Shown one piece after another: positions 39,259 to 43,797 of a stretch of DNA of 64,000 nt. This DNA is from Acidobacteriota bacterium. Its GTDB lineage: Bacteria > Acidobacteriota > Thermoanaerobaculia > Gp7-AA8. The stretch spans positions 2,011 to 66,010 of the forward strand of contig JAFAOU010000003.1 of NCBI GenBank assembly GCA_019247495.1, read 5' to 3'. Numbering within the stretch: the stretch's first letter is position 1; every line of letters begins with the position of its first letter. The notes beneath the pieces were generated by a model. That model was not told the origin of the DNA. It did not search any database and saw only the letters and a program-made list of their open reading frames with translations. The translations under genes and the position numbers were made by a program.

Positions 39259-41700
39259 TCAGAGCGTTTCGCGGATTTTCATCAGGAGAGGGAGGAAGAC
39301 CTTTTCCCCTTTTTCGTCGGCAAACGCCACCGCGCCATCGATGGCCGATGCGGCCTCGTCACGGCGGCCGGCGCGCAGAAGAGCGTCGGCGTAAAGAATC
39401 GCGTAGTACGTCGTCACCAGCGGGCCGGCGGTCGTGCGCCATTTTTCGAATCCTGATCGGATCTCGCTGATGCCGTCGGCCATGTTTTCGAAACTCGATG
39501 CCCATCCGTGGCTCATCACGCCGAGGCCTTGATACGACGGGAAGCCATGGGAGCGGGCCAGCGATAGCAGCCTGTCGGCGGTTTCGCCGCATCGCACGTG
39601 GTCGCCAGTCATCTGATACATCCACGCGCCGGTGTTCAAGGCGATGACCAGGCTGAACGGATGATTGAGCGCCTCCGCCTGCGGCAGGAACGCCGTCCAC
39701 GCGTTTCTGGCATCGTCGAAACGGTTTTCGAGGCAGGCAATCCAGACCTCGAACTGATTGACGATCACGGCCGCGTCCATGCCGTACTCCAGCCGGTGCG
39801 TGGCGGTGTCGATGCATGGATAAAGCTCGATCACCTTCCGCGTGTGTTCGGCACACGTCGCGAGGTCGCCGCTCCAGAACGCGCTGTTCGCGATCGACGT
39901 ATGCGCGGCAAGCACTCCTTCCAACGACCCGATCCGTTCCGCGACCTCGAGGCATTGCGCGGCGGTAGCCAGCGACTCTGCGAGATCGCATCGCACGAGG
40001 TAATACGTCCAAAGCGCGAATAGGAACTGCGTGGCCTCAGGACAATCGGGAAACTGGCGGGTAAGCTCGCGAGCGTGGTCGTAGCGCGGTTTCAGAACGG
40101 GTGCGGCCCATCCCTGCAGCACCTTGATCGCCACCGACCAGCGCAGGATCAGGATGAACTCCCGTTTCGCGCGCTCCGGCGTGTTCGGAAGCAGGTCGAT
40201 CAGTTCGAGCGCGCGCGTGGCGTGGACCAGCGCTTCCCGATACCCGCTCATTCGCAGCGCCTGATCGAGCACGATCTCCAGATACCGCAGCGCATTCTCG
40301 GCGTCACCGGCTTGGTCGTAGTGATAGGCCAGGTCGGTCGCGATCTGATCGGTGTCGCCTTCGTACATCTCTTCCAGCAGCGCGGCGACGTCGCCATGCA
40401 TCAGCATCTTCTCGGCGTCGCTGAGGCTCCCGTACAGGTACTGCTGCACCAGCGCATGCGCGAACCGGTAGTGCGCGAGCACGCGGCGTCCGCGGCGATG
40501 CACCGACAGCTCGAGCACGAGACCGTGCCGTTTCGTGAGATCGGCGGAGAGCAGTTTCAGCAGCCGCCGTTCGTCGACGTTCTGGATCTGGGCCACGATC
40601 TGCGCGAGAAAATCCGTCGTGCCCGTGCCGACGCTCGCCACCGTCAGAATCTCGCGCAGCTCGTTCTCGAGCCGGCCAATCCGCTCGCCGATCACGCCTT
40701 CGATTCGCGGCGGAAGTTCGGACCACGACACCTCCCGCGCCACCGTCCAGTTTCCGCCGCCGTCGCAAGCGAGGCAGCCTTGCTCGCGCAGGTAGCGAAC
40801 CAGCTCCACGGTGAACAGCGGATGGCCGTTCGTGTGCTGGAGGAGCGCAACGCGAAACGACTCCCCGATCCGATTCGGTTCACTGTCCACGATCTGATCG
40901 ATGAAGGCGCGGCGTTCGTCGGAGGTGGATTCGCCGAGGTCGATGACGAGATCGCCGAAGTAGCGCTTCAGTTCGAAGAGCACCTGCTCGAGTGGATGGC
41001 GTTCGCCGCCGCGTCCCATCGTGATGTCGTTGGGCCGATACGTGCCGATAAGCAGAATTCTGGCCTGCTTGATCTGACGCGCGATGTGAAAGAACAGCGC
41101 GATCGACGACGCGTCAGACCACTGCAGATCGTCCAGAGCGATGAGCAGCGGCCGGTCCTTCGCCACTTCCTGCAGCACCTCGGTGTACTGCCGGAAAATC
41201 TTCTCCTGATCGAGCTCCGTTGGACGCTTGGCGGGAGTCGGATCCTTGCTCATCCAACCAGCTTCTTTCGCCACGGCGATGCCGGCGGACGCGATCAGCT
41301 TCGAGCCCGGGATGAAGACGTTGATCAGCTCGGGCGCCATCGAGATCAACACCTTCCTCGCAACCGAAAGCATGTTCGTGCCGGCCTGCGGCTTGTCCTC
41401 CGCGTCGCCGGTCAGGACTTTCAGAATGTCGCGAAAGGGGAGATACGCATCGCCCGCGCCGGTGGCCGAACTGCACTCGCCGATCGCCCATGCGAACGGC
41501 GGAGACGCCGTTTCCGCGCGGCGGATGACTTCCGCGAGCAGCGTCGATTTCCCCGAGCCTGCCTCGCCCGCGAGAAGAAGAACGCGCGGCTTGCCGGCCT
41601 GTGCATCGTCGAGCGCCTCCTGAAATCGGGCCAATTCGCGCGTACGGCCCGCGAAGCTTCCAGCAGCGAAGGCAGAGATGTCCGCGGTCGATGTCGTCAT
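39259..41700 (-). CDS. STAND-class AAA ATPase with C-terminal TPR-like helical repeats and no N-terminal effector
   Basis: FAGRTRELARF, LLAGEAGSGKST, IALDDLQWSD, TNGHPLF, YRFAHALVQQYLY, LAYHYDQAG; start at ATG 41700. Confidence 0.85.
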   Translation of the reverse strand: MTTSTADISAFAAGSFAGRTRELARFQEALDDAQAGKPRVLLLAGEAGSGKSTLLAEVIRRAETASPPFAWAIGECSSATGAGDAYLPFRDILKVLTGDAEDKPQAGTNMLSVARKVLISMAPELINVFIPGSKLIASAGIAVAKEAGWMSKDPTPAKRPTELDQEKIFRQYTEVLQEVAKDRPLLIALDDLQWSDASSIALFFHIARQIKQARILLIGTYRPNDITMGRGGERHPLEQVLFELKRYFGDLVIDLGESTSDERRAFIDQIVDSEPNRIGESFRVALLQHTNGHPLFTVELVRYLREQGCLACDGGGNWTVAREVSWSELPPRIEGVIGERIGRLENELREILTVASVGTGTTDFLAQIVAQIQNVDERRLLKLLSADLTKRHGLVLELSVHRRGRRVLAHYRFAHALVQQYLYGSLSDAEKMLMHGDVAALLEEMYEGDTDQIATDLAYHYDQAGDAENALRYLEIVLDQALRMSGYREALVHATRALELIDLLPNTPERAKREFILILRWSVAIKVLQGWAAPVLKPRYDHARELTRQFPDCPEATQFLFALWTYYLVRCDLAESLATAAQCLEVAERIGSLEGVLAAHTSIANSAFWSGDLATCAEHTRKVIELYPCIDTATHRLEYGMDAAVIVNQFEVWIACLENRFDDARNAWTAFLPQAEALNHPFSLVIALNTGAWMYQMTGDHVRCGETADRLLSLARSHGFPSYQGLGVMSHGWASSFENMADGISEIRSGFEKWRTTAGPLVTTYYAILYADALLRAGRRDEAASAIDGAVAFADEKGEKVFLPLLMKIRETL

Positions 41701-41789
41701 GTTTGGAAAGAAGTCATTATCGCTGAAAAATATGCAAGAATGCAGAACCCAATCGTCCGTATCTATGCAATGACTGAAGGAGGTCCACG

Positions 41790-43007: not shown

Positions 43008-43017
43008 GGAGGATGTC

Positions 43018-43797
43018 TTGAGCGTGAACGGTTCATGGATCAACGTCTTCGGCTCCGTCGTTTCGCTCGAACAAAAAGAGGAAGGGGTCGTCATCGGCAC
43101 CTACACATCGACGACCGGCGCATCCGGTTCGTATTGGGTGGTTGGATTCACCGACCCCAATCCGCCGGCGAATGGCAACGGACAGAGCCTCGCCTTCGCC
43201 ATCCTCTGGCGCTCGTTCGACGGAGGCACGCCCGATCCGAGCTGGCACTACGTCTCCGGCTTCAGCGGCCAGATGGTGACCATCGAGGGCACGCCAAGCC
43301 TCGTGATGATCCACGACATGGTCGCCACCGCGGTGGACCCGGGCGTCGTGGAGATCATCGGCAGCTACCCCGACAAACTCACATACGTGCCGCACACCGC
43401 CAGCACTCCGCCAAGCGGACCGCTGCCAGTCCAGCTGCCGGCGAACGGCGATCCGGTCGACGGAAACTGGACCTGCGTTCAGGATCCCCACATCGCGTTC
43501 TTCCTCGACGTTCAGAATGAGATCACCGGCCTCCTCGCCGGCACCCTCACCACCGCCACCGGAACGGTGCATCTCTCCGGCTTCACCGACACCGGCGCCG
43601 GCAACGACGGCCTGACTCTGCAAGGCCTGACTGTCGCCGCACTCCTACCGGACGGCCACACGGTCGTGGCGATCGCCGGCAGCCTGAACCTCCACACCAA
43701 CTCACTGACGATGTCCTGGCTCGAAAGCGACGGCACCGCAGCCGACTCAACCTGGACGCAAACGCGGCTGCGCGGATTGGATTTCGTGCGGGGATGA
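43018..43797 (+). CDS. Tandem double avidin/streptavidin-like protein
   Basis: RBS AAGGAGG, TTG start. Domain 1: GSWINVFGSVVSL..GTYTS..LAFAILW..SGFSGQ. Domain 2: GNWT..GTLTT..SGFTD..AIAGSL..LTMSWL..TW. Confidence 0.7.
   Translation: MSVNGSWINVFGSVVSLEQKEEGVVIGTYTSTTGASGSYWVVGFTDPNPPANGNGQSLAFAILWRSFDGGTPDPSWHYVSGFSGQMVTIEGTPSLVMIHDMVATAVDPGVVEIIGSYPDKLTYVPHTASTPPSGPLPVQLPANGDPVDGNWTCVQDPHIAFFLDVQNEITGLLAGTLTTATGTVHLSGFTDTGAGNDGLTLQGLTVAALLPDGHTVVAIAGSLNLHTNSLTMSWLESDGTAADSTWTQTRLRGLDFVRG

Follow-up and report, generated by a model that had tools for sequence, protein, structure and literature searches.

The window analysed here, a stretch of 64,000 nucleotides (nt) from contig JAFAOU010000003.1 of an Acidobacteriota bacterium of the class Thermoanaerobaculia (assembly GCA_019247495.1), has a GC content of 63.4% and carries three intact open reading frames (ORFs) that code for a STAND NTPase, a pepsin-family aspartic protease and an avidin-like protein. 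The STAND gene lies on the reverse strand (39259..41700, ATG at 41700 and stop at 39259) and codes for 813 amino acids (aa). A divergent intergenic region of 89 nt (41701..41789), with a GC content of 42.7%, separates it from the protease gene on the forward strand (41790..43007, ATG at 41790, stop at 43007, 405 aa), which is followed on the same strand by the avidin-like gene (43018..43797). The product of the latter would be 257–259 aa long, depending on whether translation starts at TTG 43018 or at GTG 43024. The TTG is probably the real start, judging from its spacing of 5 nt to the Shine-Dalgarno motif and from the “MSV” N-terminus that it would share with the proteins of four related loci (L006–L008 and L010 in our numbering). 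Each of the two forward genes has an AAGGAGG Shine-Dalgarno motif, at 41777..41783 (+) for the protease, 6 nt 5′ of the ATG, and at 43006..43012 (+) for the avidin-like gene, where it overlaps the protease stop codon. By hydropathy only, i.e., with no dedicated signal-peptide predictor, all three proteins lack a hydrophobic segment at the N-terminus (maximum Kyte-Doolittle means over 11 residues of 1.16–1.57). A first-pass annotation of this DNA had already described the three-ORF layout, which our re-reading of the ORFs returned unchanged, together with an AT-rich divergent spacer, AAGGAGG ribosome-binding sites on both operon genes and the lack of signal peptides on all three products, and the figures above agree with it on each. 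The intergenic region also contains an extended -10-like element, TGCAAGAATGCA (41733..41744), ca. 48 nt upstream of the protease ATG. It is conserved in relatives, and its AGAATG core is invariant or nearly so in an alignment of the intergenic regions of 13 of them. The element is also kept at L010, where the STAND is a different one. A scan of positions 38900–44100 for the sigma-70 consensus found no promoter.

The STAND protein matched Pfam AAA_16 (2.6e-22, residues 16–218), less strongly several STAND NTPase models, and weakly TPR_MalT. Its Walker A motif, GEAGSGKS, corresponds to residues 45–52 and its Walker B aspartates (DD) to residues 190–191, and the residues G45, G48, G50, K51, and D191 were invariant in two alignments of homologs. 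The AlphaFold2 model (pLDDT 86.7, pTM 0.74) comprises the nucleotide-binding oligomerization domain (NOD), a winged-helix region and helical repeats that continue to the last residue. The best Foldseek matches of this model were the archaeal STAND-TPR structure 6mfv, Avs3, CED-4, Apaf-1, and MalT. When the PDB was searched by sequence with the profile of the STAND, only generic TPR matches came up. By its architecture, a P-loop NOD with Walker A and Walker B followed by a winged-helix region and a repeat sensor, the protein is a STAND NTPase. Neither Pfam, PADLOC nor the AlphaFold2 model revealed a DNA-binding or enzymatic output domain at either end. The NOD is preceded by just 15 residues, in which no domain was detected, there was no match to GerE (the LuxR helix-turn-helix, HTH), and the C-terminus falls inside the helical repeats. 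The view that this STAND is devoid of an effector of its own is thus upheld by all three approaches, the model consisting of only the NOD, the winged-helix region and the helical repeats. Its relatives at 36–41% identity are “predicted ATPases” of ca. 900 aa with an extra C-terminal tail, some of them with a SARP (BTAD) domain. A LAL regulator (AAA_16 with a LuxR-type HTH) that had merely lost its HTH could be ruled out, since BLASTP against the LAL neighbour found in Pseudomonas aligned the P-loop only. A LuxR part split off into a separate downstream gene found no support either: the ORF at 38405–38893 has no Pfam match, and the synteny with relatives stops at the STAND stop codon.

Compared with known systems, the STAND of the window resembles Avs proteins in carrying a helical-repeat sensor after its STAND NOD and in its structural match to Avs3. 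However, Avs proteins have a fused N-terminal effector that is missing here, and the PADLOC Avs models match the window protein at the P-loop only (Avs2, 1.7e-4, residues 22–64). The likeness to the apoptosome (Apaf-1 or CED-4 with caspases) lies in the structural matches and in the idea of an NTPase switch that controls a protease, but no recognisable CARD-type adaptor is present on the STAND or on the protease of the window. In addition, the latter is of the pepsin type, not a caspase and not trypsin-like, which sets the locus apart from both the apoptosome and Avs. MalT and the other LALs, the PknK-like kinase-STANDs and the STANDs of the SARP/AfsR type share the AAA_16 NOD and a TPR-like sensor with the window STAND, which differs from all of them by having no output domain at either end.

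The protease matched PF00026 (1.3e-20, 74.6 bits against a cut-off of 19.9) over residues 53–360, covering profile positions 1–306 of 315 and therefore both lobes. The catalytic aspartates are D72 (codon 42003–42005, in a DTG motif) and D267 (codon 42588–42590, in a DSG motif). In an alignment of 22 homologs D72, G74, D267, G269, S270, and S271 were invariant, as were the first disulfide cysteine pair (C85 and C90) and the flap F118-G-P-W121-G, in which the flap Tyr75 is absent. The same loss of the flap tyrosine has been reported for the uncharacterised bacterial pepsins of Marinomonas and Sinorhizobium (Rawlings and Bateman, 2009; PMC2761423). On these features the protein is predicted to be an active MEROPS A1 aspartic endopeptidase. 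It begins with an Arg-rich extension of 35 residues (six R/K and no D/E), followed by a conserved “VPL...GPYQNNGAS” start; the hydropathy of the extension is too low for a signal peptide, and this possibility was discarded. Searches returned 245 homologs of the protease at E ≤ 1e-5. Among them, the distant homologs P0065, P0083, P0043, P0079, P0096, and P0112 (Azospirillum included) have a Tat-type signal peptide, P0112 also with a lipobox-like Cys, and other distant homologs have nothing at this place. Some members of the family are thus probably exported. With the bacterial pepsins described so far (PMC2761423; shewasins A and D, PMC4814920) the window protease shares, as those papers present them, the bilobed A1 fold, both catalytic aspartates and the first Cys pair, as well as the absence of a signal peptide or classical propeptide and a cytoplasmic location, predicted or shown. 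The aromatic, non-Tyr flap residue is common to the window protease and the Marinomonas/Sinorhizobium group, and the shewasins, as classified there, belong to a different group of bacterial pepsins. The parts of both papers on which we draw describe no partner protein or regulator.

The avidin-like protein matched PF01382 (2e-9, 38.3 bits against a cut-off of 24) over residues 2–96 only, i.e., over a first barrel. Its AlphaFold2 model, built from a 30-sequence alignment (pLDDT 93.1, pTM 0.91), contains two eight-stranded barrels: an N-terminal one encoded at ca. 43024–43395 (+), which keeps streptavidin-type ureido-binding residues, and, after a linker, a degenerate C-terminal one at ca. 43462–43794 (+). 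The best Foldseek matches were the engineered single-chain dimeric streptavidins 6S50 and 6S4Q (TM 0.77–0.80), and ordinary streptavidins matched one barrel each (TMt ca. 0.8). The tandem avidin that had been proposed from the sequence is thus supported by the model and by its structural matches. Like 6S50 and 6S4Q, the window protein has two barrels per chain in the arrangement of a streptavidin dimer, but it is natural, has only ca. 20% identity to them and carries the ligand residues in the first barrel only. Taking N23, S27, Y43, S45, G48, W79, and W92 to be biotin contacts of streptavidin, barrel 1 conserves all of their equivalents (N7, S11, Y27, S29, G32, W62, and W/Y76) in the profile and family alignments, and barrel 2 has no streptavidin-type contact residues. 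N-termini were listed for 50 of the unfused avidin-like proteins; all 50 begin directly at strand 1, and no signal peptide was seen in any of them.

In order to see how widely these genes occur together, the protease alignment was searched against one genome per species (GTDB), giving 75 loci, and against metagenomes, giving 57 more. The two sets partly overlap at loci from metagenome-assembled genomes (MAGs), e.g., L104 resembles L010 and L105 resembles L011, and are therefore not fully independent. An avidin-like gene was adjacent or fused to the protease in 67 of the 75 species-genome loci (48 pairs and 19 fusions), and several of the eight misses sit at contig ends. The avidin part was likewise present in 48 of the 57 metagenome loci, ten of them fused. 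Among the 120 protease homologs listed, ten were fusions of 638–687 aa with PF01382 and/or the A1 families PF00026 and PF14543. The carriers include Thermoanaerobaculia and other Acidobacteriota, Sphingomonadales, Pseudomonas, Marinomonas, Vibrionaceae, Burkholderiales, and a Cyclobacteriaceae MAG. The conserved core of the locus is therefore the pepsin-avidin pair, and it is widespread. A protease tree was built with 64 of the 75 loci plus the window (65 rows), leaving out 11 loci whose best single match was shorter than 300 residues. The fusions fall in separate clades on this tree, and its two major clades, each with 99% support, differ in their partners: marine gammaproteobacteria with kinase and GGDEF partners in one, STAND and LAL partners in the other.

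Some loci depart from the simple pair. Two protease subclades, one with GGDEF and the other with LAL neighbours (L057, L060, L067, L069, L140, L144, and L145) are apparently without avidin despite having enough flanking sequence. In the sphingomonad loci L012, L016, and L051 two tandem-avidin genes flank the protease (e.g., L012:9164-9946 and 11266-12072). The avidin-like gene of Celerinatantimonas diazotrophica is broken into two ORFs (L059:11226-11453 and 11650-12252), which suggests a frameshift or a pseudogene.

The association of the two domain families has been published before. Laitinen et al. (2021, BMC Ecol Evol, PMC8033661) reported fusion proteins of P. fluorescens and P. veronii in which an A1 peptidase precedes an avidin of their “Extended” clade, a clade whose members they considered likely biotin binders, and an unassigned C-terminal extension of ca. 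150 residues in the avidins of Marinomonas, Enterovibrio, and Aliagarivorans. These three genera occur among our loci, and on the two-barrel model the extension, as it is described there, is a second, degenerate avidin barrel. In the window the same two domain families are encoded by separate, translationally coupled genes; the text of that paper to which we refer mentions neither this operon form nor STAND, LAL or kinase neighbours.

A STAND gene adjoins the pair in 12 of the 75 species-genome loci and in 14 of the 57 metagenome loci, in Acidobacteriota, Bacteroidota, and Pseudomonadota. The possibility that pepsin-avidin homologs would never be found beside STAND genes, set out beforehand as the result that would count against a link, is contradicted by these loci. 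The window genome has one member of the STAND subfamily, beside the pair, plus one remote relative, and the genomes of L065 (Burkholderiales MAG), L064 (Cyclobacteriaceae MAG), and L011 (Terracidiphilus) have exactly one STAND match each, also beside the pair. Both components are rare. The pepsin was found in one of 401 sampled genomes of the phylum, the window's own, and in none of seven genomes of the same family; 14 other genomes of the phylum gave STAND-family matches, at ≤36% identity and in ORFs of ca. 890–1270 aa. At E ≤ 1e-80 the window STAND matched one of 401 sampled Burkholderiales genomes, that of L065, which holds the trio. In the database listings, several protease matches and STAND matches have longest contigs of identical length (e.g., 48014, 37091, 76924, 6992, 27853, 5391, 68862, and 13033, and 5637 for a SARP-STAND), a mere lead to further loci where the two may be linked. 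When the window was compared by tblastx with nine acidobacterial loci, the block common to relatives was ca. 39250–43800, i.e., the trio, and the flanks differed (the DUF72 gene is shared by only three of the nine). Within this block gene order varies, with four arrangements: the STAND is divergent in the window, L003–L010, and L022, co-oriented upstream in L011, and co-oriented downstream in L065, L106, and L103, and L064 has the order STAND(−), avidin(+), protease(+). The repeated adjacency in varied order and the single-copy STAND beside the pair bear out the functional link among the three genes that the first-pass annotation had put forward.

The STAND tree had 48 rows, namely 13 linked loci and the window, 14 pepsin-less genomes and 20 sequences chosen by hand from the 120 database matches listed; it was computed in the quick mode under LG+G4, with flags raised for long branches. 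All ten output-less linked STANDs grouped together in a clade (100% support) that excluded the STANDs of the 14 pepsin-less genomes, and the linked STANDs fused to a TIR-cyclase or to a kinase sit in other clades. The linked STANDs being in different clades, at least three or four AAA_16 lineages have been placed beside the pair, and the tree points to independent recruitment of the TIR-cyclase and kinase-fused STANDs. The link to STAND and other signalling genes is therefore not due to chance but repeated and non-random.

STANDs are only one class of partner. Neighbours were classified by clustering, Pfam searches on representatives and phmmer with domain pieces (E ≤ 1e-4, stop-to-stop ORFs), so that the counts are approximate. 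A signalling gene was found at ≤700 nt from the pair in 50 of the 75 GTDB loci and in 29 of the 57 metagenome loci. The most common in the GTDB loci was a PAS-HisKA-HATPase-REC hybrid kinase, usually followed by a REC-GGDEF gene and co-oriented downstream (21/75; metagenome loci 3/57), and a PAS-GGDEF gene, mostly directly upstream, was present in 9/75 and 2/57. Output-less AAA_16-TPR STANDs accounted for 9/75, plus one that also has a kinase, and 11/57, and LAL regulators for 7/75 and 9/57. Ser/Thr-kinase-STANDs (1/75 and 2/57), TIR-cyclase-STANDs (1/75 and 1/57) and kinase fragments (1/75 and 1/57) complete the set. LAL genes as a cluster are present in 16 GTDB loci, the further copies lying a few kb off. 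The earlier idea of the STAND as the defining partner is not supported, since most loci have other signalling proteins, either a LAL or a PAS hybrid kinase with REC-GGDEF.

Several neighbours are worth describing individually. In a Thermoanaerobaculia MAG (L010:6174-9899, −, and also L104) the divergent neighbour is a protein of 1242 aa with TIR_2, adenylate/guanylate cyclase, AAA_16, and MalT-like TPR domains, the TIR domain matching PADLOC ThsB (6.4e-19). A PknK-like Ser/Thr kinase-AAA_16-TPR protein adjoins the pair in three loci (L022:2-3844, −, L103, and L109). In 26 sphingomonad and Pseudomonas loci (L012–L035 among them) genes for hydantoinase/oxoprolinase A and B are found 3–7 kb upstream (e.g., L012:1526-3718, L030:5283-6623, L027:6233-7072, and L036:65-1420), with an Asp/Glu/hydantoin racemase in 15, an MFS transporter in 15, and a TonB-dependent receptor in 11. 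Just upstream of the pair in Marinomonas (L039:8726-9310 and L046:7175-8644) there are a Lipocalin_2 bacterial lipocalin gene and a GH79-like gene.

The explanation that we favour, giving it somewhat better than even chances, is that the three genes form a module that moves horizontally and in which a ligand-directed cytoplasmic protease is switched by the STAND. Its core would be a two-subunit cytoplasmic protease, the pepsin-family endopeptidase being co-transcribed with a natural single-chain dimeric avidin. The pair is sometimes fused and strictly coupled, and for this reason we take the avidin-like protein to be a putative subunit of the protease, most likely one for ligand binding, targeting or gating. 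The conservation of its ureido-binding residues suggests that the ligand would be a biotin-like compound or tag. The signal-transduction protein to which this core is coupled differs from lineage to lineage. In the window, the STAND would sense a ligand through its helical-repeat domain, switch with ATP and control the pepsin-avidin protease by direct protein contact, or else be itself controlled or processed by the protease. Because the outputs of the neighbours vary and many of them have no DNA-binding domain and are co-transcribed with the pair, control or reporting would take place at the level of proteins or second messengers and not by transcription alone. For this locus we therefore prefer a STAND that uses ATP to switch the protease by acting on it directly. 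Inferred in this mechanism are the contact between the proteins and which of them controls the other, as well as the ligand and the function served, be it in stress, metabolism or defence.

Several observations weigh against this explanation. Direct binding among the parts has no support: the prediction of a protease-avidin complex scored 0.00 in two runs, which had no controls and count neither for nor against it. In barrel 1 the position of streptavidin W108 is Met or Leu, that of T90 is Trp and the equivalent of D128 is uncertain, so that biotin binding is not assured. The acid pH optimum of the shewasins, as reported in PMC4814920, is awkward for a cytoplasmic enzyme. The clade of output-less STANDs also holds six database sequences whose gene context was not seen. 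There is no signalling gene within 700 nt in 25 of the 75 GTDB loci and 28 of the 57 metagenome loci, including most of the fused Pseudomonas genes (many of the metagenome contigs are short), from which it follows that the pair can work without an adjacent switch. Finally, the LuxR-type LAL neighbours, in at least 16 loci, fit plain transcriptional control of an operon rather than switching at the protein level.

One alternative, which we consider improbable but with some arguments in its favour, is a metabolic or scavenging role, with the avidin capturing biotin, biotinyl-peptides or a ureido/hydantoin-like compound that the protease releases or processes and with the STAND, LAL or kinase as regulator of the pathway. 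LALs of the LuxR type are well known for activating catabolic operons, MalT being an example. The ureido-binding triad and its neighbours conserved in barrel 1, the hydantoinase A and B genes upstream in the 26 sphingomonad and pseudomonad loci, with racemase, MFS transporter and TonB receptor genes in subsets of them, and the Tat-like signal peptides of some protease homologs, suggestive of an extracytoplasmic and nutrient-related function in those lineages, all speak for such a role, as does the assessment of the “extended” avidins as likely biotin binders in PMC8033661. However, the window STAND has no DNA-binding domain and so is not a simple operon activator, a DNA-binding output is also missing from the hybrid-kinase and GGDEF partners, the conserved block in Acidobacteriota contains no hydantoinase or transporter genes, and the unfused avidin-like proteins listed are uniformly without signal peptide.

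Anti-phage defence by abortive infection, which the first-pass annotation had proposed together with a role in cell death, is in our opinion also improbable. Here the STAND would sense a phage product, oligomerise and activate the pepsin in trans, with growth arrest or death as the result and the avidin as inhibitor, substrate or biotin sink. The sporadic distribution of the pepsin, with the trio as the only syntenic block, would fit, and so would the matches of the STAND model to Avs3, Apaf-1, and CED-4, all of them activators of effectors. The partner STAND of L010 and L104 has a ThsB-like TIR together with a cyclase domain, a phage-type integrase lies just upstream in L103 (6385-7329), and in L065 (14533-17176) a full pair of HEC-03B (3.7e-134) and HEC-03A (3.5e-27) comes directly after the protease-avidin-STAND operon. 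An RNA ligase gene stands beside this HEC-03 pair of the Burkholderiales MAG. On the other hand, PADLOC-DB v2.0.0 finds no system in the window: the STAND gave P-loop matches of 35–45 residues (the best at 1.7e-4), and the protease and the avidin-like protein none. The flanks of 16 STAND-type loci were also scanned with PADLOC and Pfam (121 of 124 candidate ORFs, the three longest having been dropped). Strong PADLOC matches were few and mostly generic (sigma-54 activators, kinases, and ABC-like ATPases), with several families coming from a single protein of L065, the Pfam content was mostly housekeeping, and a recognised candidate defence system (HEC-03) abuts only one of the 16 loci. Co-orientation with PAS hybrid kinases and REC-GGDEF genes, as in the marine gammaproteobacteria, or association with LAL, hydantoinase/oxoprolinase, racemase, and transporter genes, as in sphingomonads and pseudomonads, is atypical for defence, and tblastn with the protease found nothing among 50,697 phage and 72,556 plasmid records. 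Taken as a whole, the evidence does not indicate a defence role, which is possible but unproven; the P-loop matches, the housekeeping flanks and the single HEC-03 locus do not bear out the earlier proposal.

A third alternative, rather unlikely in our view, makes the avidin-like protein a tight-binding inhibitor or immunity subunit that silences the cytoplasmic pepsin until a signal arrives. Inhibitors of the eight-stranded calycin fold are encoded beside serralysin proteases and offer an analogy. The strict coupling of the genes, with the Shine-Dalgarno motif overlapping the protease stop codon, the conservation of the pair, sometimes as a fusion, and the sphingomonad loci with two avidin-like genes around one protease are all compatible with inhibition; a latent cytoplasmic form, which must exist, was proposed by the authors of the shewasin D work (PMC4814920). 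Nevertheless, a covalent fusion of inhibitor and enzyme is unusual unless the inhibitor is a pro-domain, an inhibitor does not need conserved residues for a biotin-type ligand, and the complex prediction mentioned above, run without controls, yielded no interface.

A more speculative reading, which we regard as a long shot, turns the pepsin-avidin pair into a biotin-guided intracellular degrader. The avidin would capture biotinylated proteins and hand them to the pepsin once the STAND fires on a specific signal (elsewhere a cyclic di-GMP, kinase or TIR-cyclase pathway). In most bacteria the biotinylated protein is chiefly the biotin carboxyl carrier protein of acetyl-CoA carboxylase. The outcome might be a shutdown of fatty-acid synthesis serving as a dormancy, abortive-infection or developmental switch, and the system, if real, would be a natural “tag-directed” protease under an apoptosome-like NTPase.

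The weakest alternative, a chance or neutral arrangement in which the function of the STAND is unrelated, hardly deserves consideration: the AAA_16-TPR family is very large (1637 matches at E ≤ 1e-10 among 8000 candidates scored) and many loci are without any STAND, but the STAND subfamily is single-copy and adjacent to the pair in four genomes of three phyla and rare in the 401-genome samples, several subfamilies have been recruited independently, and synteny is confined to the trio.

To our knowledge, no function, partner or regulator has been assigned to the bacterial pepsins since their discovery in 2009, and the avidin fusion of 2021 has likewise been left unexplained. Here the pair is seen to be a conserved unit with links to signal-transduction proteins across three phyla or more, which provides concrete candidate partners (STAND, PAS kinases with GGDEF proteins, and LAL regulators) and a candidate class of ligands, the biotin-like compounds. 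The tandem avidin would also be a natural counterpart of an engineered scaffold used in biotechnology. Should the STAND control the protease directly, it would represent a bacterial output-less STAND that acts through a separate protease, in parallel with the apoptosome and with an unrelated class of protease. The combination had been presented as undescribed. Bacterial pepsins (2009) and pepsin-avidin fusions (2021) are already known, the fusion being in print (PMC8033661), and for this part the claim fails; it stands for the link to STAND and signalling genes. The literature searched, which did not extend to the supplements of PMC8033661, where more fusions or contexts may be listed, gave no report of the tandem barrels, of the two genes as an operon or of their systematic association with STAND, LAL, kinase, and GGDEF genes.

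According to Pfam and PADLOC the flanks of the trio in the window encode an NtrC-type regulator, an ABC-2 permease, a DUF72 protein and a fumarase. The regulator (31221–32627) is an NtrC-type response regulator with REC, sigma-54 interaction and AAA lid domains, and its matches to the PADLOC model “RtcR_PspF” are strong but generic. Downstream of the DUF72 gene there are three long overlapping ORFs (44623–46020, 45626–47887, and 46405–48051) that have no Pfam match.

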